Below, piece by piece: positions 5,705 through 39,087 of a stretch of DNA of 48,158 nt (positions within the stretch are counted from its first letter, which is position 1; each line of letters begins with the position of its first letter). The DNA lies in assembly GCA_046540175.1 (NCBI GenBank), contig JBKHFO010000002.1, forward strand, positions 1 to 48,158, written 5' to 3'. A model generated the notes under the pieces. It ran no database searches. It had not been told where the DNA came from and was given only the letters and a program-made list of their open reading frames with translations. Made by a program: the position numbers and the translations under genes. Source of the DNA: Candidatus Hydrogenedentota bacterium (GTDB lineage Bacteria; Hydrogenedentota; Hydrogenedentia; Hydrogenedentales; SLHB01).

Positions 5705-8080
5705 GTGATGACGCCCGCCCCTCAAGGCCAGCGCGCCGAAGCCGGAATGCGAATCCGGGCTGAGGTGGACGGGTGCGTCCAAGGCGTGGGGTTTAGGCCG
5801 TACGTTTACCGGCTCGCCGTGGAACTTGGTCTCGCCGGCTACGTGACCAATACGCCGGCGGGGGTCACCGTTGAGGCGGAAGGTCCCAAGACGGATGTTC
5901 AGGCGTTTCTCGACCGCCTTCCGCGCGAAAAGCCGCCCTTGGCGGAGATACGCTCGTTGGATTGGCGGGAGATTCCCCCGCAATCCAGCCCCGGTTTCGT
6001 GATTGAGAAGAGCGCGGCCGGCCCAGATCCCGTGGCGCAGATCCTCCCCGACATGGCCACCTGCCCGGACTGTCTGCGCGAAATCCTGGACCCCGGGGAT
6101 CGGCGATACCAGTATCCCTTCACCAACTGCACCCATTGCGGCCCCCGCTATACGATCATCCACGGTTTGCCCTACGACCGGCCCCGCACCTCGATGGCGG
6201 GTTTCCCCATGTGTCCGCAATGCCGGCGGGAATACGAGGACCCCATGGATCGCCGGTTCCACGCCCAACCCGTGGCCTGTCCCGCGTGCGGGCCCCACGT
6301 CCAGCTCTGGGACGGCGAAGGCCGCTGCCTGTCGGCAGAAACCGCGGCCCTGGACGAGACCGCGGAACGCATCCGGCAAGGGGCCATTGCGGCGGTGAAG
6401 GGACTCGGCGGATTTCATCTCGTGTGCGATGCGCGCGACACGGCGGCGTTGGAGCGGCTTCGTGAACGCAAGGCCCGGGAGGAAAAACCCTTCGCCGTGA
6501 TGGCGCCGCGCTGGGAGGAGTTCGCGTCAGCGTGCCGGATAGACGCCGTGGCGGTCAGCGCGCTGGAATCGCCGCAAGCCCCGATTGTCTTGGTTCCGCG
6601 CATCCCCGGCGCGGATGATGGCCTTTCCCGGCTTGTGGCGCCGGACAGCCCCGCTCTCGGGCTCATGGCGCCGTACACGCCGCTGCATCATCTGCTCCTG
6701 GCCCGGCTCGGTTTTCCCGTGGTGGCGACGAGCGGCAACCTGCGGGATGAGCCCATCTGTATCGACGAAAACGAAGCCCTGCGCCGGCTGACGGGCATCG
6801 CCGATGTATTCTTGGTGCATAACCGGCCCATCGTGCGGCCCGTGGACGATTCCGTCGTCCGCATCATCGGCGAAACGCCTGTGCTTCTCCGGCGGGCGCG
6901 CGGGTACGCCCCAGCCCCGATTAGCATCGAGCATGGCTCGGAGCATTCCGTGGTGGCCATGGGCGGCCACCTCAAGAACACGGCGGCGTTGACCATGGGC
7001 CACCGCATCATGTTGAGCCAGCACATCGGAGACCTCGAAACCCCGGAAGCGCGGGACGCCGCCGGCGCCGCCATCGCCAGTCTCCGCTGCCTCTACCGCA
7101 TTACACCGGACGTGGCCGCGTGCGACATGCATCCCGATTACGCCAGCGCCCGCTCGGCCCACGATTCCGGCCTGCCGGTGTATCCGGTGCAGCACCATCA
7201 CGCGCACATCGTAGCCTGCATGGCCGAGCACGGTCTCGAAGGCCCCGTGCTGGGCGTTTCGTGGGATGGAACCGGTTACGGACACGACGGAACCGTGTGG
7301 GGCGGGGAATTCTTGACCGCCACCGAGACGGCGTATCAACGCATAGCCGCGCTTCGGCCGTTTCCTTTGCCCGGCGGCGAGCAAGCCATGCGGGAACCCC
7401 GGCGCAGCGCGTTGGGGCTCTTGTACGCCCTGGACGGAGGCCGCCAGCCCTTGGACAAGACCGCGGCCCCTTTGGGGCAGGGCGTCTTCCGCGAACGCGA
7501 GTTGAAGGTGCTGGATGCCTGGTTGCGCCGTCACGGGGACGGGGTGTTGACCACGAGCGCCGGCCGGTTGTTTGACGCCGCCGCCTCCCTGTCGGGCTTG
7601 CGCCAGTACGCGGGCTACGAGGGCCAAGCAGCCATGGCCTTGGAAGCGGAAGCCGCCACGGAAACTGCGGAGCCGCCGCTTTATCCCATGCGTTTGCGAA
7701 CCGAACACCGTCCGGCCTGGCTGGACTGGGAGCCGCTCATCAAGGGATTGCTCGCGGAGCAGAATAGCGGGGCCGTGCGTCCTACATTGTGCCGGGCCTT
7801 CCATCGCAGCCTGGCCGACGGCGTACGCCAGGTGGCCGAATGGGCGGGCTTCGAAACCGTGTGTCTTGGCGGCGGCTGTTTTCAGAACGCCCTGTTGACC
7901 GAGTTTATCGTTGAACTGCTGACGCGCCAGGGGTTTGCCGTATACTATCCCCAGCGCATCCCCCCGAACGATGGGGGGCTCGCCCTTGGACAGGCCTGCT
8001 GCGTGTTGCGGCGCCTGTCCGTTACGTCTACAGCGCAAAAGGAGGGATCATGTGCCTTGCCGTTCCAGGTGAAGTCCTGA
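5705..8080 (+). CDS. hypF: carbamoyltransferase HypF
   Basis: Acylphosphatase domain (VQGVGFRPYVYRLA), two Zn-finger pairs (CPDCLRE...CTHCGPRYT, CPQCRRE...CPACGP), then YrdC-like and Kae1-like domains; 791 aa. The GTG at 5705 is followed immediately by ATG 5708. Confidence 0.95.
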   Translation: MMTPAPQGQRAEAGMRIRAEVDGCVQGVGFRPYVYRLAVELGLAGYVTNTPAGVTVEAEGPKTDVQAFLDRLPREKPPLAEIRSLDWREIPPQSSPGFVIEKSAAGPDPVAQILPDMATCPDCLREILDPGDRRYQYPFTNCTHCGPRYTIIHGLPYDRPRTSMAGFPMCPQCRREYEDPMDRRFHAQPVACPACGPHVQLWDGEGRCLSAETAALDETAERIRQGAIAAVKGLGGFHLVCDARDTAALERLRERKAREEKPFAVMAPRWEEFASACRIDAVAVSALESPQAPIVLVPRIPGADDGLSRLVAPDSPALGLMAPYTPLHHLLLARLGFPVVATSGNLRDEPICIDENEALRRLTGIADVFLVHNRPIVRPVDDSVVRIIGETPVLLRRARGYAPAPISIEHGSEHSVVAMGGHLKNTAALTMGHRIMLSQHIGDLETPEARDAAGAAIASLRCLYRITPDVAACDMHPDYASARSAHDSGLPVYPVQHHHAHIVACMAEHGLEGPVLGVSWDGTGYGHDGTVWGGEFLTATETAYQRIAALRPFPLPGGEQAMREPRRSALGLLYALDGGRQPLDKTAAPLGQGVFRERELKVLDAWLRRHGDGVLTTSAGRLFDAAASLSGLRQYAGYEGQAAMALEAEAATETAEPPLYPMRLRTEHRPAWLDWEPLIKGLLAEQNSGAVRPTLCRAFHRSLADGVRQVAEWAGFETVCLGGGCFQNALLTEFIVELLTRQGFAVYYPQRIPPNDGGLALGQACCVLRRLSVTSTAQKEGSCALPFQVKS

Positions 8081-10681: not shown

Positions 10682-10930
10682 ATGAAAGAGTTGACATATA
10701 CCATCGTGCTCGAACCCGCCGAGGAAGGCGGTTACAACGTGTCTGTTCCCGCGCTGCCGGGCTGCTTCACTCAGGGCGAGACCTACGAAGAGGCGTTGGC
10801 CATGGCCGAGGACGCCATCAAGTTATGGCTTGAGACGCTGGCCGCGGACGGTCAACCAATCCCCCAAGAAGAATCGGCGCCAGAGGTGCGGTTGGCCCGC
10901 GTCCAGGTGGCGGCGCCTGCTAAAGAATGA
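10682..10930 (+). CDS. hicB: HicB-family antitoxin (type II TA)
   Basis: YTIVLEPAEEGGYNVSVPALPGCFTQGETYEEALAMAEDAIKLWLE is the classic HicB/UPF0150 N-terminal fold signature. Strong RBS GAGGAGG; ATGA overlap with the downstream hicA frame. Confidence 0.85.
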   Translation: MKELTYTIVLEPAEEGGYNVSVPALPGCFTQGETYEEALAMAEDAIKLWLETLAADGQPIPQEESAPEVRLARVQVAAPAKE

Positions 10931-11149
10931 GCCGGTTACCCGCGTTATCGGCGCAAGAGGCCGTGGCCGCGCTCAAGAAAGCCGGATATTCTCCAGCCAG
11001 ACAGAGCGGCAGCCACCTCACGCTGAAACAATCCTTCGCGGCCCACGGTGATTGTGCCGATGCACGGGGGCAGCCTGCATCGCGGTCTCTTGATGCGGAT
11101 CGTTAAGCAAGCCGGCTTTAGTACCGAGGAATTCTTGGAGTTGCTATAA
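10927..11149 (+). pseudogene. hicA: hicA mRNA-interferase toxin interrupted by a frameshift (or sequencing error)
   Basis: The frame from ATG 10927 gives MSRLPALSAQEAVAALKKAGYSPARQSGSHLTLKQSF, then runs into unrelated sequence and stops at 11104-11106. The +1 frame from ~11042 gives PTVIVPMHGGSLHRGLLMRIVKQAGFSTEEFLELL*, a typical HicA C-terminus ending at 11149. The frame shift lies near 11030-11045. Confidence 0.7.
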
Positions 11150-34331: not shown

Positions 34332-34635
34332 TTCCAGATAGTCTTGATGCTGGCGCGCATGAAGTCAGACATCTCCTTAGCGTCCTGAAGTTTAGTAGGG
34401 AAAGGTCTTGTTTCGTGCACAGCTGGACAGCCTCCCCGGGGGACGGCAGGCGCAGCCACTGGCGGGCATTGTACTGCCCCCCTATACGCGGCCTCAAGAC
34501 GCGCCCAACCCTCCACAACGCTAGGCCGGGCGGGAACTTCTCGTTCCCCGTTGGGTTACACTAACCAAAGGCGCGATGTGGATCGCGGCAAGGCTGGAAT
34601 GGCGACAACGCCGTTACAAGAAAGAGGACCATGTC

Positions 34636-35526
34636 ATGACGAAAAGCATTATAGTGGCCATTGTCACCCTATCCCTGGGCGCCATCGCAGGGACGATAGT
34701 CACCCAAACTCGTTTGAGCGGCGAAATGGAACAGCTTCGGGGGGAGCACCGGGAAAGCCTGAGACTCGCCAACGAGACCCAGGAGGCCTTGGCTTCAACG
34801 GAGCGGCGGGCCGAGCGGCTAGCCCAACAAAACACCCATCTCGAGGATCGCTTGGACCGCCTCCACGCCACACTCGAGGACGCCCAGGGCGGGGCTGGCG
34901 CGGTTGACGCGCAAGACGAAGGCGAATCCCTGGACGGAGAGGCCTTGGCTGGGGTCGAAGATGCCCGGATGGAAATGCCGCAGGGGGCAAATGCCCCCCA
35001 GCGGGAGGCCGCCATGGATTGGCGCGAGGAACTGGCTAGAGAGCGCGAAGAGGACGCCGAAGCAACCGAGGAAGAACGCGAGGCGAGACGAGAGGAGAGA
35101 CGGCAAGAGTGGGAGCAGCGCGCGCAGCAGATGCGGGATGACATGCGGGAGCGCTTGCAGGAGGCGATCCAGACCGCGGAGGATCCGCAGTCGCGTGACC
35201 GCATGACAGCCGTGGCGGAATACAGCGAATATATCATGGAACTGCGCGAGCAGATGCGCGACGCTGGTGACGACGAGCAACGTGAAGCATTGGTTGAAGA
35301 GATGCGCGAAGCCGGCCGCGAGGTGCGCAATCTTGTCGAAGAGCAGCAAGAACATAACCTGATGAACGTCGCCGAGCAATATGGCATCACCGACGAGGCG
35401 GAGGCGCGCGCGTTGATCGAGTCGCTAGACGAAGCCCGGTCCGATGGTATCTTGGGCGGCGGCCGGCGCGGCGGCATGCCCGGCGTCATGGGCCGGGGCG
35501 GCCCGGGTGGCGGCCGGGGCCGGTAA
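34636..35526 (+). CDS. membrane-anchored, highly charged coiled-coil protein with Gly/Arg-rich tail (function unknown)
   Basis: ATG 34636 preceded by AAGAGGA. N-terminal TM helix IIVAIVTLSLGAIAGTIV, long E/R/Q-rich heptad-like region, and C-terminus GGGRRGGMPGVMGRGGPGGGRGR. Confidence 0.6.
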   Translation: MTKSIIVAIVTLSLGAIAGTIVTQTRLSGEMEQLRGEHRESLRLANETQEALASTERRAERLAQQNTHLEDRLDRLHATLEDAQGGAGAVDAQDEGESLDGEALAGVEDARMEMPQGANAPQREAAMDWREELAREREEDAEATEEEREARREERRQEWEQRAQQMRDDMRERLQEAIQTAEDPQSRDRMTAVAEYSEYIMELREQMRDAGDDEQREALVEEMREAGREVRNLVEEQQEHNLMNVAEQYGITDEAEARALIESLDEARSDGILGGGRRGGMPGVMGRGGPGGGRGR

Positions 35527-35912
35527 GACAGACCGCCCGCCGACACTGGGCAAATAACGGATTCCCCCCAAGAGAGTACGAGACTAGAGAGGGAGGAGGG
35601 TTCCTTGCGAAGGAGTTATCTGACAGAGGGGGTAATACTATTCCGTTCCACTAGATAGCGCCTGGATATACCCGTAGCGTATCCCATTCTCTGCGCATCC
35701 CCGCGCATTGAAGGTTGGCGGCGACCGCTTTCAATGCGCGGGCTCTCTCCAAAACCTTCCGCGAATAAGCCACTGCTGGCGTCTTCTACATAGAAACTTA
35801 ATGCAATATGGCCGAGCCTAATGAAGCTGGCGGCGAGGATACCGTTTAGAGCAGGAGTTTGTAAGGGAGGAGGAGCGGCGGGCCTTGGGAACCCGCCGCT
35901 CCGATGCGGGGA

Positions 35913-36103
35913 GTGTCTGAAATCGGGGCTCCGTGTAGGTTAGGTGCAAGAGGGTCACGGACTATCTGAGGGTCGAGGCGCTTGACTTGGGCTAGCCAAG
36001 GCCTCCGGGCGTTTTGGGGGAGCTACCGGCTTCTTGGGTTGCGGTGCGAACTAGATGGAGACGAGCGGCCGGTCCCCTAAAACGCCCCGGTGATTTCAGA
36101 CAC
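35913..36103 (+). ncRNA. candidate structured RNA or palindromic element (~190 nt multi-stem junction); class unknown
   Basis: Closing 12-bp perfect stem GTGTCTGAAATC (35913-35924) / GATTTCAGACAC (36092-36103). Internal stems: TCCGTG/CACGGA (35930-35935/35956-35961); GAGGC/GCCTC (35975-35979/36001-36005) around CTTGG/CCAAG; GGCGTTTTGGGG/CCCCTAAAACGCC (36008-36019/36074-36086) continued by ACCGGC/GCCGGT. Strand assignment is tentative and rests on a T6 run at 36143-36148. Confidence 0.3.
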
Positions 36104-36741
36104 CGACCGTAGTCTACCACATCCTGTGGGTGATGTCAAGGGTTTTTTCAAAAAAGTTGAGGGATTGGGGAGAATTCATTGCTCATATGGTGGGGAGACC
36201 CTGCAAATGCCTTTATATTGTGGCCACACTGCATTCACCGTCCGCACGCTCAGACCATATATTGTGGTTTGCGCAATCACCTTTCCTCTCGCCATGGGCC
36301 GCTTGTATATCTCCAGACCCATCCCGCCGGCTGACTCACCCCCACGCTATTCCGCATCTCTACAGCCCGAAACTTACCGTTCAACGCGTTCCCCAATCAC
36401 CGGATAGGGATTTGCAGGAACCGTATCGCCGCCTTCCAAGCGGCTCATGGATGCCGGTGAGACGCCGGCGGTACGTGCTCACCCATTGGGTGAGGATAAC
36501 CTTTTGTTTTCGGCGCTACCAATAGGGACGGCAAGATAGATTGCGCTGAGTGATCCGGCGATTGGGGCGGGGTTCCCTTTTCTCGCCGTTGCGTGCTACG
36601 ATAGGTGTTATTGGGAAAGTGTTCAAAGCTAAACAGGGCAGTTCGTTGGGCGCTGCTTGGGCGCTCCAATCTTCATTTGGCGGAAGGGGCCCGAGAGGGG
36701 CTAAACACGGTTGAACACAAAACCGAAGGAGAACACGCACC

Positions 36742-37716
36742 ATGAGAACAAATGTAGCGCGTATCGCAACACCGTTGTTGGCGTTGGGGTTTGCCTTGGC
36801 GTCAGTGACGGCCGCTGGGCAAGAGGCGCAGTCCGTTGGCGCGTCAATGGAAGACGACCAGATTGTGGTGACAGTGGATGGAGAAGAGTTCACGGCCTAC
36901 AAGTTCGGCGAAGAACACAAGTATCCCTTCTTTTATCCCGTGAATGGGCCGGCGACCGGAGAGAGCGTGACAGCGTGGGATCAGGAGCCGTACCCGCATC
37001 ACAGTTCCCTGTACGTCAGCCTGGACTCGGTGCGCTCGGAAGGCGTGGAGCGCGGGAATTACTGGCAGCCCCGGCATGAACTGGGGACGGGCCAGGTCTT
37101 TTCGCGCAACCCGGAAATCGTCGAGGATACTGGCGATGTGGTCGTATTGCGGGATGAGTGCGATTGGATCGTGCCAGACGAGGACGCCCACCAGCTCCGC
37201 GACACGCGGACGGTCACCATCTGGGCGCCTTCGCCGGACGTGCGCATTCTGGATTTTGAATTCCAGTTTGAGGTTCTGACGGATCTCGAAGTGGGACCCA
37301 CGGGGCACTCGTTCTTCAGCGCACGGATGCGCCCCGAACTCGCGGTGGGCGATCCCGATCGAGGCCCGGATCAGGCCCCGCTGGGTACGGGGACCATCGT
37401 GGATTCCGAAGGGAACCAGGACGAGGAAGGGACGCGCGGGCGCAGTGGCGCGGCCTGGAACGCCTACTATGGCGAACATCAGGGCGAAACCGAGGGCCTG
37501 GCCATCATCCAGCACTCGGATAATCCCGGGTATCCCGCGCCGTGGTTCAACCGCAACTACGGGTTCATGTCCCCCACTCCATTCGATTTTATTGACGATC
37601 CCGTGTCGTTGGAGGAGGGGGAAATCCTAAACTTCCGCTACCGCACGGTCGTCTTCACGGGCGACCATGAAGAGGCCGGCATCGCGGGCTGGCGCGAGGA
37701 TTTTGAACAGCAATAG
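36742..37716 (+). CDS. secreted PmoA-family / DUF6807-like protein
   Basis: Signal peptide MRTNVARIATPLLALGFALASVTAAG. Motifs KYPFFYPVNGPATGESVT, PYPHHSSLYVSLD and GNYWQ are typical of the family. RBS GAAGGAGA. Confidence 0.75.
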   Translation: MRTNVARIATPLLALGFALASVTAAGQEAQSVGASMEDDQIVVTVDGEEFTAYKFGEEHKYPFFYPVNGPATGESVTAWDQEPYPHHSSLYVSLDSVRSEGVERGNYWQPRHELGTGQVFSRNPEIVEDTGDVVVLRDECDWIVPDEDAHQLRDTRTVTIWAPSPDVRILDFEFQFEVLTDLEVGPTGHSFFSARMRPELAVGDPDRGPDQAPLGTGTIVDSEGNQDEEGTRGRSGAAWNAYYGEHQGETEGLAIIQHSDNPGYPAPWFNRNYGFMSPTPFDFIDDPVSLEEGEILNFRYRTVVFTGDHEEAGIAGWREDFEQQ

Positions 37717-37798: not shown

Positions 37799-37822
37799 AG
37801 GCCTCGGACAAGACTGGCTACC

Positions 37823-37936
37823 GCGCCGTGACTGGCGACGCGACGTGGAATGGACCACGGGGAAGCGGCGCGGAGACGCAATGCCGCTCGCCTGGGCGCC
37901 GGAGGGAAGATACGGCCGCCCAGGCGTGTTTTTTTT
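37823..37936 (+). promoter_or_regulatory. ZTP (pfl-motif) riboswitch with terminator expression platform, upstream of purH
   Basis: P1 GCGCCG (37823-37828) / CGGCGC (37866-37871); conserved TGACTGGCGA (37829-37838); P2 GTGG/CCAC (37845-37848/37855-37858); GGGGAAG. 3' sub-domain CCGCTCGCCTGGGCG (37884-37898) carries the hallmark CGCCUGGGC pseudoknot segment. That segment overlaps the 5' arm of the terminator CCTGGGCGCCG (37891-37901) / CGGCCGCCCAGG (37913-37924) plus T8 (37929-37936). The downstream gene is an AICAR transformylase, the classic ZTP regulon member. Confidence 0.8.
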
Positions 37937-37968
37937 CCGGAAAGACGGCATTGGAAAGGTTTAGTATC

Positions 37969-39087
37969 ATGGCTGACGACGATATCAAAAAAATGTACCG
38001 CACCCGCGCCAAGGGCGATTTCCCCGACGGCTTTGAGCTGCTCGGACGGCGCTATGAAAAGGTCGAGGATCTCCGCTACGGCACCAATCCACACCAGCCC
38101 GCGGCCTTTTACCGGCCCGCGGATCGGGAAGGACTTGTGCTGGGAGACTACGAGGTCCTTAAATCAGGCAAGAGTGGTCTCTCCCAGACCAACATTGAGG
38201 ACATGCATCACGCCGTGGGGATCCTGAAGTACATGCCCACGCCGGCCTGCGCCGTTATGAAACACTGCAATCCGTCGGGCGTGGCGATGGAGGTGGACGG
38301 GATGGCGTTGGCCGAGGTGTACCGGCGGGCTCGCGACGCGGACGCCCAAGCGGCGTTTGGCAGCGTGGTGGTCTTCAATACCGAGGTGGACGCCGCCACG
38401 GCGGAGGCCATCATGGAGACCATCGTGGAAGGCGTGGCCGCCCCGGCGTTCACCGGGGAAGCCTTGGCGGCGTTGAAGGATTTCGAACGCTTCGGCCGGA
38501 ACAAGGAACTTCGCGTCATCCGCCTTCCCGAGTTCAGCCGCCTGCCCCGCTATGTGGGCGACCCCTGTGAGACGAGCGAAGTCAAGATGTTCGACGACGG
38601 CAGCCTGGTGCTGGCGAAGCCCTATCTTAGCCGGATCACGTCGCCCGAGGATTTTGAGCCCGCGTACAACGAGCACCGCAAGAAAGGCCGCATCGACATC
38701 GAGCGCCAACCCACGGAACGGGAACTCGACGACCTGCTCTTCGCGTGGTATGTGAATATCCACGTGCGGTCCAACGGCTGCGTCATCGCCCGCAACGGCC
38801 AAACGCTGGCCGTGGGCACGGGCGAGCAAGACCGCGTAGGCGCCGTGGAGCAGGCCTTGGTCAAGGCGGGTCAGAAGTATAAGGGAACGGAGTCGCTCGA
38901 AGGAGCCGTGTTGTCGTCCGATGGCTTCTTTCCTTTCCGCGACGCCGTGGACGTGGCGGTGAAAGCTGGCGTAAGGGCCTTTGTGCAACCCGGCGGAAGC
39001 GTCAACGACTACGACGCCATTCAGGCCTGCAACGAAGCCGGCGCCACCATGGTGTTCAGCCTTGAACGGTGCTTTTCGCACCACTAA
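37969..39087 (+). CDS. purH: AICAR transformylase-only PurH (no MGS-like IMP cyclohydrolase domain)
   Basis: ATG 37969 preceded by GGAAAGG. RYGTNPHQPAAFY and C-terminal SDGFFPFRDAVDVAVKAGVRAFVQPGGSVNDYDAIQACNEAGATMVFSLERCFSHH match the AICARFT half of PurH. 372 aa is too short to hold the IMPCH domain. Confidence 0.85.
   Translation: MADDDIKKMYRTRAKGDFPDGFELLGRRYEKVEDLRYGTNPHQPAAFYRPADREGLVLGDYEVLKSGKSGLSQTNIEDMHHAVGILKYMPTPACAVMKHCNPSGVAMEVDGMALAEVYRRARDADAQAAFGSVVVFNTEVDAATAEAIMETIVEGVAAPAFTGEALAALKDFERFGRNKELRVIRLPEFSRLPRYVGDPCETSEVKMFDDGSLVLAKPYLSRITSPEDFEPAYNEHRKKGRIDIERQPTERELDDLLFAWYVNIHVRSNGCVIARNGQTLAVGTGEQDRVGAVEQALVKAGQKYKGTESLEGAVLSSDGFFPFRDAVDVAVKAGVRAFVQPGGSVNDYDAIQACNEAGATMVFSLERCFSHH

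Follow-up and report, generated by a model that had tools for sequence, protein, structure and literature searches.

A conserved candidate small RNA gene of the Hydrogenedentota, with a loop complementary to the clpX mRNA tail in many relatives

What does a hairpin-dense, ORF-poor stretch of 1.2 kb encode in an uncultured Hydrogenedentota genome? The stretch (35527-36741) lies in a 48,158-nt window of Candidatus Hydrogenedentota bacterium (GCA_046540175.1, contig JBKHFO010000002.1, positions 1 to 48,158), and all coordinates below refer to this window. A first-pass annotation had proposed one or two structured ncRNAs, or a decayed mobile element, matching no recognizable RNA family. Its observation holds: we found all three perfect stems (35700-35712/35730-35742, 35872-35882/35892-35902, and 35913-35924/36092-36103), the 10-bp direct repeat TATATTGTGG at 36214 and 36258, and the CTCACCC/GGGTGAG hairpin. 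No ORF of the region has a Pfam match. The 291-nt core folds better than shuffled sequence on both strands, with z of -3.9 for the plus strand and -5.3 for the minus strand. Several details needed correction. The GC content is 54-60% rather than about 52%, the multi-stem element belongs to the minus strand, and the "weak hairpin plus T6" at 36143-36148 is the A/T-rich tract just upstream of the minus-strand -35 box rather than a terminator. The interpretation is supported in both of its halves, since the region is a mosaic of an ncRNA gene and a MITE. The dispersed copies that the annotation had named as a possible refutation were found only for 36391-36567, whereas the multi-stem element is single-copy. 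No evidence for a second ncRNA was found in 36150-36520.

Architecture and conservation of the RNA gene

The RNA gene spans about 243 nt on the minus strand (36104->35862), from a predicted start at about G36104 to the pyrimidine tail behind the 3' hairpin. The match of our covariance model (R1) extends over 35862-36106 with 155.9 bits (E 4e-41). A promoter scan identified a near-consensus promoter at 36139-36111 with 10 of 12 matches, composed of a -35 box TTGACA (36134-36139), a 17-nt spacer, and a -10 box TAGACT (36111-36116) preceded by TGTGG, an extended -10. The -35 box is invariant in 24 of 24 aligned relatives, the promoter is conserved in all of them and in every family, and the spacer of relatives carries the conserved block ATATnTTGTGKTA. 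The A/T-rich tract TCAACTTTTTTGAAAAAACCC (36140-36160) lies upstream of the -35 box, and A-rich tracts sit at the same place in relatives; its action as an UP element is an inference. Further upstream, three CCAC(A/C)ATAT boxes (36184-36267) are the reverse complements of 36184-36193, 36214-36223, and 36258-36267, the last two being the TATATTGTGG repeat. The boxes are invariant between the window and the same-genus genome G003 while their flanks differ, and we infer that they may bind a transcription factor.

The 12-bp stem of the first-pass annotation is helix P1, a 13-bp helix which joins the 5' and 3' parts of the RNA and closes a four-way junction with three arms. The 5' strand of P1, GGUGUCUGAAAUC (36092-36104), pairs with the 3' strand GAUUUCAGACACU (35912-35924), and ten of the 11 core pairs show compensatory changes across 71 sequences. 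The long arm P2 (36007-36087) is variable in length or absent in short forms, its two helices covary, and its internal loop carries CCGCAACCCAAG (36033-36044; consensus CCGCAGCCCAAG). The P3 hairpin (35975-36005) carries GCUAGCCCAAG in its loop (35986-35996; consensus GACCGCAGCCCAA), and 8 of 8 pairs of its helix show compensatory change. The P4 hairpin (35930-35961; UCCGUG/CACGGA) displays a 20-nt loop at 35936-35955 (ACCCUCUUGCACCUAACCUA; consensus ACCCUCUUGCGCC plus a variable part), which is invariant across families. A conserved single-stranded linker CUCCCCGCAUC (35903-35913) leads to the terminator-like 3' hairpin GGAGCGGCGGGUU/GGCCCGCCGCUCC (35872-35902), a 13-bp hairpin whose loop UUCCCAAGG is conserved order-wide and in which 8 of 12 pairs show compensatory change. 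This GGAGCGGCGGG hairpin had been taken as a separate element but is the 3' domain of the RNA. The pyrimidine tail is CUCCUCCUCCCUU (35863-35875), whereas relatives have CCCUCCUUUU. Most relatives have a U-run after the 3' hairpin, but the genus of the window does not. Another 13-bp perfect hairpin (35700-35742) lies in the spacer between the upstream coiled-coil gene (stop at 35526) and the 3' end of the RNA. It is conserved only in G003, at 79% identity, and no T-run follows it on either strand.

The RNA is single-copy in its own genome. The covariance model finds one copy in 116 of 135 genomes of the phylum, covering all 13 families of the order Hydrogenedentales, and in 77 of 86 high-quality genomes. 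An exact-pattern scan of 185,579 species genomes returned 44 loci, of which 36 are labelled Hydrogenedentota, Hydrogenedentes, or Hydrogenedentales. The other eight carry no competing well-supported taxon (five "uncultured Nitrospiraceae", one "FCB group", two "uncultured bacterium"; one further record is titled only "metagenome genome assembly"). On the sequence-only MAFFT alignment, 90.9% of cells are paired against 33-46% when partners are slid, and 29 of 49 pairs show compensatory change. On the 72-sequence alignment, which is fitted to the model, the values are 94.1% against 34-48% and 40 of 49 pairs, and none of 500 shuffles reached them. The paired columns hold 297 G.U cells against 46 A.C cells, which together with the promoter assigns the element to the minus strand.

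No Rfam family matches this locus. Among the 4227 covariance models of Rfam 15, none reached its gathering score in the region, and with a permissive E-value threshold only mir-624 (E 0.78; 19.7 bits against 100) and RNaseP-T (E 5.2; 12.9 bits against 60) appeared. Six homologous loci also gave nothing. The plus-strand string GAAATCGGGGCTCC recalls the RNase P CR-I region, but a canonical RNase P RNA (303.9 bits) lies on another contig of the genome (C70) and the element is on the other strand. The SRP RNA (contig C278) and tmRNA are likewise found on other contigs. The 6S model RF00013 matches contig C23 at 10869-11054 (68.9 bits) and one locus in each of 25 of 26 genomes searched (own plus 25 relatives), 23 of them above the family cut-off, and never this locus. 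As for bacterial Y RNA (YrlA), which is marked by linkage to an rsr (Ro60) gene and a tRNA-like domain, the observations are limited to the absence of an Rfam hit and the variable neighboring genes.

A neighboring 177-bp MITE

The segment 36391-36567 is a MITE-like dispersed repeat of 177 bp, delimited by 15-bp terminal inverted repeats CCCCAATCACCGGAT (36391-36405) and ATCCGGCGATTGGGG (36553-36567). It contains the CTCACCC/GGGTGAG hairpin and TTTTGTTTT, so that the hairpin with its T-run at 36478-36510 lies inside the repeat. The own draft genome gives 55 BLAST hits (about 50 copies), about 20 of them full-length, and many copies occur in the same-genus genomes G001-G003. The aligned copies show sharp ends at the inverted repeats, and no Pfam match was found. 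The flanks of 12 copies show no clear target-site duplication.

A possible base-pairing role and alternative explanations

The P4 loop suggested a possible function. In relatives (designated by G numbers), the site GGCGCAAGAGGGTC lies 35-58 nt after the clpX stop codon, and the identity of ClpX was confirmed. It matches 14/14 in G011, G018, and G008, 13/14 in G010, and 11-12/14 in G014, G013, G006, G021, and G007, while the surrounding UTR sequence is not conserved. Loop-to-UTR duplexes reach -27 to -36 kcal/mol, with z of about -3 to -9 against shuffles, although the pairs in the variable part of the loop come from RNAduplex, which maximises pairing. Changes between the two RNAs are compensatory: G018 has GAAAC with GUUUC, G010 has GAAGC with GCUUC, and in G013 the loop A->U change goes with UTR U->G. 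The seed-plus-terminator pattern occurs in 22 of 133 genomes against 3 control hits, and 21 of the 22 belong to the family of the window (f1). As a negative control, fliQ leaders show no such pairing. In contrast, the site is absent from the window's own genome and from G003 (best match 8/14; duplexes of -8 and -10 kcal/mol, z > 0), from several f1 genera, and from all other families. Yet the P4 loop is invariant in those lineages, so clpX cannot be the ancestral or only partner. Genome-wide, perfect 12-mer complements of the P4 loop are not clearly commoner than the control pattern. In the own genome a 12-mer complement sits at the rpsQ ribosome-binding site, but it is not recurrent in relatives. 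A 14-nt perfect complement lies at C189:5580 of the own genome. A search of 20 genomes revealed no recurrent complement of the CAGCCCAAG loops. Single-query tblastn searches with E. coli Hfq and ProQ, without profiles, gave no hit in this 91%-complete genome.

Taken together, we consider two points shown with high confidence, on sequence evidence alone: a free-standing gene for a structured ncRNA with a sigma-70-type promoter, kept once per genome throughout the Hydrogenedentales, and an unrelated MITE beside it. Transcription of the gene, delimitation of the transcript by its 3' hairpin, and any function remain inferred in the absence of expression evidence. That the RNA acts in trans by base pairing is an inference that we hold only slightly more likely than not, and the explanation as a whole is held with fairly good confidence. 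In this view, the invariant C/U-rich P4 loop (GACCCUCUUGCGCC plus about 6 variable nt) would be a seed for G/A-rich sequences. In at least 12 genera of f1, the partner would be a 13-20-nt, perfectly or near-perfectly complementary site in the clpX 3'UTR, about 10 nt before the clpX terminator. The clpX mRNA tail, or an sRNA cut from it, would either be regulated by this RNA or titrate it, which would link the RNA to the clpX-lon proteostasis locus. In the genus of the window the site is missing and the loop has drifted (GCACC). The other invariant loops (CAGCCCAAG twice, and the terminator loop CCCAAG), without an identified partner, may bind a protein.

The last possibility leads to an alternative that does not exclude base pairing but seems rather unlikely as the main role, namely a protein-binding or sequestering RNA, an RNP scaffold or a sponge in the manner of CsrB or 6S, in which clpX pairing would be a secondary, lineage-specific addition. 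The motif (C)AGCCCAAG or CCCAAG is displayed three times in unpaired positions (P2 internal loop, P3 loop, and terminator loop) and is conserved across all families, without a recurrent RNA complement. The depth of conservation, single copy, and near-consensus promoter resemble housekeeping RNAs, and the sequence of the terminator hairpin, including its loop, is conserved far beyond what termination needs. However, no candidate protein was found, neighboring genes are not conserved, and the P4 loop does show conserved RNA-RNA complementarity. The conserved loops (CAGCCCAAG, CCCUCUUGCGCC, and CCCAAG) hold no GGA, so it is not a CsrA sponge, although a CsrA homologue exists in the genome (contig C97). 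A broader version of this idea, which we regard as unlikely, is a housekeeping-grade regulatory hub specific to Hydrogenedentales that would form a new functional class. An unknown protein would read the three CCCAAG loops, P4 would cross-talk with the clpX-lon transcript, and transcription would be tied to the flagellar export operon through a shared promoter block. The block TTGACA-N6-ATATnTTGTGKTA indeed occurs about twice per genome, at the RNA gene and upstream of fliQ. Membership in a flagellar regulon was nevertheless rejected, because the RNA does not track FlhA: the non-flagellate family f11 and G010 keep both the RNA and its promoter, while the flagellate genomes G062, G063, G030, G041, and G042 lack a detectable RNA.

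The remaining readings are very unlikely. One is a cis-acting leader (riboswitch or attenuator), in which the P1-closed junction would be an aptamer and the 3' hairpin would be the terminator of an expression platform controlling a downstream gene on the minus strand. A junction closed by P1 and followed by a terminator-like hairpin resembles transcriptional OFF switches, and the unpaired junction and loop nucleotides are conserved. Across 64 loci, however, there is no conserved downstream gene, and the next gene is often convergent, as in this window, where the next minus-strand ORF is more than 1.5 kb away beyond a plus-strand gene. The high conservation of the terminator sequence and loop is also unusual for an expression platform. 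Decayed mobile DNA or a degraded protein-coding gene could be suspected from the MITE 290 bp away, the good folding on both strands, and the GC content of the surrounding tract, which is lower than in the flanking genes. The single copy, the presence in 116 of 135 genomes in differing contexts, the covarying helices, the promoter kept in all families, and the lack of Pfam matches speak against it.

Relation to known systems

Hydrogenedentota are an uncultured candidate phylum, common in sediments, groundwater, and wastewater or anammox reactors, and our literature search found no non-coding RNA described for them beyond the universal ones. The present RNA adds a fifth near-universal structured RNA to their gene set, with a covariance model that can annotate it. 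It also yields a concrete prediction that is testable without culturing the organism, a 13-20-bp duplex with the clpX mRNA tail supported by compensatory changes. In addition, the result shows that a hairpin-dense "empty" region can be resolved into a true RNA gene, its promoter boxes, and an ordinary MITE. The RNA family is uncatalogued, whereas trans-acting sRNAs, to which we provisionally refer it, are an established type.

The MITE resembles bacterial elements such as Correia/NEMIS of Neisseria, RUP of Streptococcus, and ERIC in its length of about 177 bp, 13-15-bp terminal inverted repeats, non-coding nature, internal hairpins, tens of copies at 75-87% identity, frequent position at contig ends, and confinement to one genus. 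It has no similarity to named MITE families and no identified partner transposase, neither of which was the object of a dedicated search, and target-site duplications could not be resolved. Like 6S RNA (RF00013), RNase P, SRP RNA, and tmRNA, the ncRNA is single-copy, conserved across the lineage, strongly promoted, and closed by a helix of its 5' and 3' parts, but its fold is a branched junction rather than a rod with a central bubble, and the canonical genes are present elsewhere in the same genome. The C-rich-loop sRNAs, namely 6C RNA of Actinobacteria (RF01066), RsaE/RoxS of Bacillales, and LhrC of Listeria, also display C-rich motifs in several hairpin loops, including the terminator loop, and in a linker. 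They pair with G-rich, Shine-Dalgarno-like sequences, and 6C shows that such an sRNA can be conserved across a whole phylum. The present RNA is larger (155-259 nt) and lacks an Rfam match, its motifs are specific (CAGCCCAAG, CCCUCUUGCGCC) rather than simple C-runs, and the only conserved putative partner found is a 3'UTR, not a ribosome-binding site. With GcvB and its mRNA-derived sponge SroC of Enterobacteria (PMC4474525) there is no sequence or structural homology. The proposed seeds are C/U-rich here but G/U-rich in GcvB, the fold is a P1-closed four-way junction rather than a row of hairpins, no Hfq was detected in the search above, and which RNA would regulate which is left undecided by sequence alone. 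The two nevertheless resemble each other in a free-standing, broadly conserved gene (here predicted) of about 200 nt with its own sigma-70 promoter, a 3' hairpin, and invariant single-stranded regions, which here are putative seeds. In f1 relatives the putative partner site, too, matches perfectly and is carried at the 3' end of an mRNA next to a terminator, the situation expected for an mRNA-derived sponge or a 3'UTR target.

Composition of the region and the dispersed MITE

The sequence features recorded in the first-pass annotation were re-examined, and its observation is confirmed: the three perfect stems, the 10-bp direct repeat and the downstream hairpin all lie where it placed them. Only short ORFs are found in the region, and none of them has a Pfam match. 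A search against Rfam 15 gave nothing at gathering score, and permissive settings added only noise (mir-624 at E 0.78 and RNaseP-T at E 5.2). The 291-nt core folds better than shuffled sequence on both strands (z -3.9 and -5.3), while the GC content is 54-60%, slightly above the 52% estimated initially. The region is flanked by two plus-strand genes, an E/R-rich coiled-coil protein with one transmembrane helix and no Pfam match (34576-35526) and a secreted DUF6807 protein (36742-37716; E 8e-51), neither of which is linked to the RNA in other genomes. Further along, a ZMP/ZTP riboswitch (37818-37904, plus strand; RF01750, 57.7 bits against a gathering score of 39) lies at the start of the purH-like ORF 37828..39087.

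BLAST against the window's own assembly and 40 relatives revealed that the region is a mosaic. Window ~35863-35964 and its surroundings are single-copy in the own genome and recur once per genome in other genera and families, whereas window ~36390-36567 is a dispersed repeat with many copies, found only in the same genus. The latter is a 177-bp MITE (36391-36567) with terminal inverted repeats CCCCAATCACCGGAT and ATCCGGCGATTGGGG, and about 20 full-length and about 30 partial copies were identified in the own draft genome, often at contig ends, with more in the same-genus genomes G001-G003. It contains the CTCACCC/GGGTGAG hairpin and the T-run noted initially, and a diverged copy sits at the orthologous site in G003. 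A perfect 13-bp hairpin (35700-35742) lies between the coiled-coil gene and the 3' end of the RNA; no T-run follows it on either strand, and it is conserved, at 79% identity, only in G003 (contig C549).

Strand, predicted fold and distribution of the RNA gene

Alignment of 24 homologues shows conservation from end to end, and all of them carry on the minus strand an invariant TTGACA, a 17-nt spacer and TAnnnT preceded by TGTG. In the window, the -35 box is at 36139-36134 and the -10 box at 36116-36111, scoring 10 of 12 with TG. The predicted start, about G36104, is the first base of the 12-bp stem described in the first-pass annotation, and the T6 tract recorded there is the A/T-rich tract upstream of the -35 box. 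The GGAGCGGCGGG hairpin (35902-35872) is the predicted 3' end; most relatives follow it with CCCUCCUUUU, whereas the window's genus has CUCCUCCUCCCUU with no U-run. The paired columns hold 297 G.U cells and 46 A.C cells, which fixes the strand.

Helix P1 (13 bp; 36104-36092 with 35924-35912) closes a junction of three arms. P2 is a long arm, variable in length and nearly absent in the short forms of 155-190 nt, P3 is a hairpin, and P4 is a hairpin with a 20-nt loop. On the sequence-only MAFFT alignment of 24 sequences, 90.9% of cells are paired against 33-46% when the partners are slid by 1-3 columns, and 29 of 49 pairs show changes on both sides. We further built a covariance model, R1, and on its 72-sequence alignment the figures are 94.1% against 34-48%, with 40 of 49 pairs, and none of 500 shuffles reached the observed values. 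Since the latter alignment is fitted to the model, the MAFFT result is the more conservative one. R1 finds one copy in 116 of 135 genomes of the phylum set, and in 77 of 86 high-quality genomes, covering all 13 families of the order, while neither of the two genomes from other orders has a hit. The lengths run from 152 to 259 nt. An exact-pattern scan of one genome for each of 185,579 species, using the most conserved block, returned 44 loci, of which 36 are titled Hydrogenedentota, Hydrogenedentes or Hydrogenedentales, and the rest carry vague or probably mislabelled titles (uncultured Nitrospiraceae, FCB group, uncultured bacterium, or 'metagenome genome assembly').

Conserved unpaired elements were identified along the RNA, including (C)CGCAGCCCAAG in the P2 internal loop and again in the P3 loop, ACCCUCUUGCGCC in the P4 loop, the linker ACUCCCCGCA, the terminator loop U(U/A)CCCAAG, and a pyrimidine tail. 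All are C-rich and none is complementary to another, so their partners must be external. The window's genus has drifted copies, CCGCAACCC, GCUAGCCC and GCACC.

The promoter block TTGACA-N6-ATATnTTGTGKTA occurs about twice per genome, at this RNA gene and upstream of fliQ-fliR. In the own genome the fliQ-fliR operon promoter (contig C92:4269-4297, plus strand; L141:570-598 in the extracted locus) carries the same TTGACA-N6-ATATGTTGTGGTA-nnnT block, as do loci L144-L164 in relatives, and in 12 genomes perfect matches occur essentially only at these two loci, against 0-1 control hits. In the relative G013, two copies of the fliQ-type promoter with identical 60-nt upstream sequence lie 1.27 kb apart (L149/L169; contig C10:207738 and 209007), one driving fliQ and the other an unrelated ORF. 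The block is kept at the RNA gene in every family, including the non-flagellate family f11, and the presence of the RNA does not track the presence of FlhA. The TATATTGTGG direct repeats are two of three CCAC(A/C)ATAT boxes upstream of the RNA promoter, invariant between the window and G003, and are plausible, putative binding sites for a transcription factor.

Complementarity between the P4 loop and the clpX 3'UTR

To look for a partner of P4, we searched 20 genomes for the perfect complement GGCGCAAGAGGG. Although the counts were close to the control, four of the hits lay in the same place, the 3'UTR of clpX. The ClpX identity was confirmed by NCBIfam equivalog models, and lon follows clpX. 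We then read the clpX 3'UTR in 29 relatives plus the own genome. The site lies 35-58 nt after the stop codon and about 10 nt before a terminator whose stem (GCCGGAAGGG/CCCUUCCGGC) is itself conserved. The match is 14/14 in the relatives G011, G018 and G008, 13/14 in G010, 12/14 in G014, G013 and G006, and 11/14 in G021 and G007, while G020 has a shifted variant; the rest of the UTR is not alignable. The terminator stem GCCGGAAGG/CCTTCCGGC is conserved in sequence across many genera (L204-L232), including the own genome (contig C1:53155-53240, plus strand), where it reads CGCGCCGGAAAGG..., which is unusual for a plain terminator and would fit a functional RNA derived from the 3'UTR.

The loop-to-UTR duplexes are -27 to -36 kcal/mol, with z of about -3 to -9 against shuffles, and the same holds in 11 further genomes. 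The pairing extends into the variable 3' part of the loop and changes in step: G018 has GAAAC with GUUUC, G010 has GAAGC with GCUUC, G113 forms about 20 bp broken by a single unpaired position on each strand, and in G013 the loop A->U change is matched by UTR U->G. The composite pattern of seed plus terminator occurs in 22 of 133 genomes against 3 hits for the control pattern, and 21 of the 22 are in family f1, the window's own family; for G111-G134 the assignment rests on sites near-identical to those with a verified upstream gene. In contrast, the own genome and G003 lack the site, as do several f1 genera and all other families. The fliQ leaders, used as a negative control, show no such pairing.

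In the own genome, the best non-self match to the lineage-specific P4 loop is a perfect 14-mer, GGTGCAAGAGGGTC, on contig C189:5580-5593 (plus strand); about 0.03-0.05 such matches are expected by chance. It lies about 140 nt upstream of a membrane-protein ORF (start at 5733), inside a long inverted repeat (CCACGGATGAACGCGGATAAACACCGATGG ... CCATCGGTGTCCATCCGTGG) that looks like another repeat family. Furthermore, GGCGCAAGAGGG, the complement of the consensus P4 loop, is found on contig C33:13594-13625 (minus strand), followed by a 15-bp hairpin in an intergenic-looking stretch, and would pair at 12 of 14 positions with the own loop. A 12-nt complement of the consensus loop on contig C150:4875-4886 (plus strand) overlaps the ribosome-binding site of rpsQ (S17) at the rpmC-rpsQ junction, but this was not seen at that place in relatives.

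Possible identity and mode of action of the RNA

The RNA is neither a known RNA nor a leader. Canonical RNase P, tmRNA, 6S and SRP RNA genes lie elsewhere in the genome, and the flanking genes vary between genomes, comprising a heptosyltransferase-like gene, pntAB-like genes and others, with a downstream gene that is often convergent, as it is here. The literature searched, including the paper reporting 224 candidate structured RNAs, contains nothing on RNAs of this phylum. The CCCAAG loops may bind a protein; they hold no GGA motif, so CsrA is unlikely, although a CsrA homologue exists, and tblastn with the E. coli proteins found no Hfq or ProQ in this 91%-complete genome.

Collectively, the interpretation of the first-pass annotation, which allowed for one or two structured ncRNAs or a decayed mobile element, is supported, with a new RNA family lying next to an ordinary MITE and offering a specific testable interaction. 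The analysis establishes the gene, its fold, its conservation, and the complementarity with clpX in a subclade. That the RNA is expressed and acts in trans through P4 on G/A-rich sites, and that the clpX mRNA tail, or an sRNA derived from it, is a target or a sponge, are inferences from sequence alone. For such an arrangement, the closest precedent is GcvB with SroC (PMC4474525).
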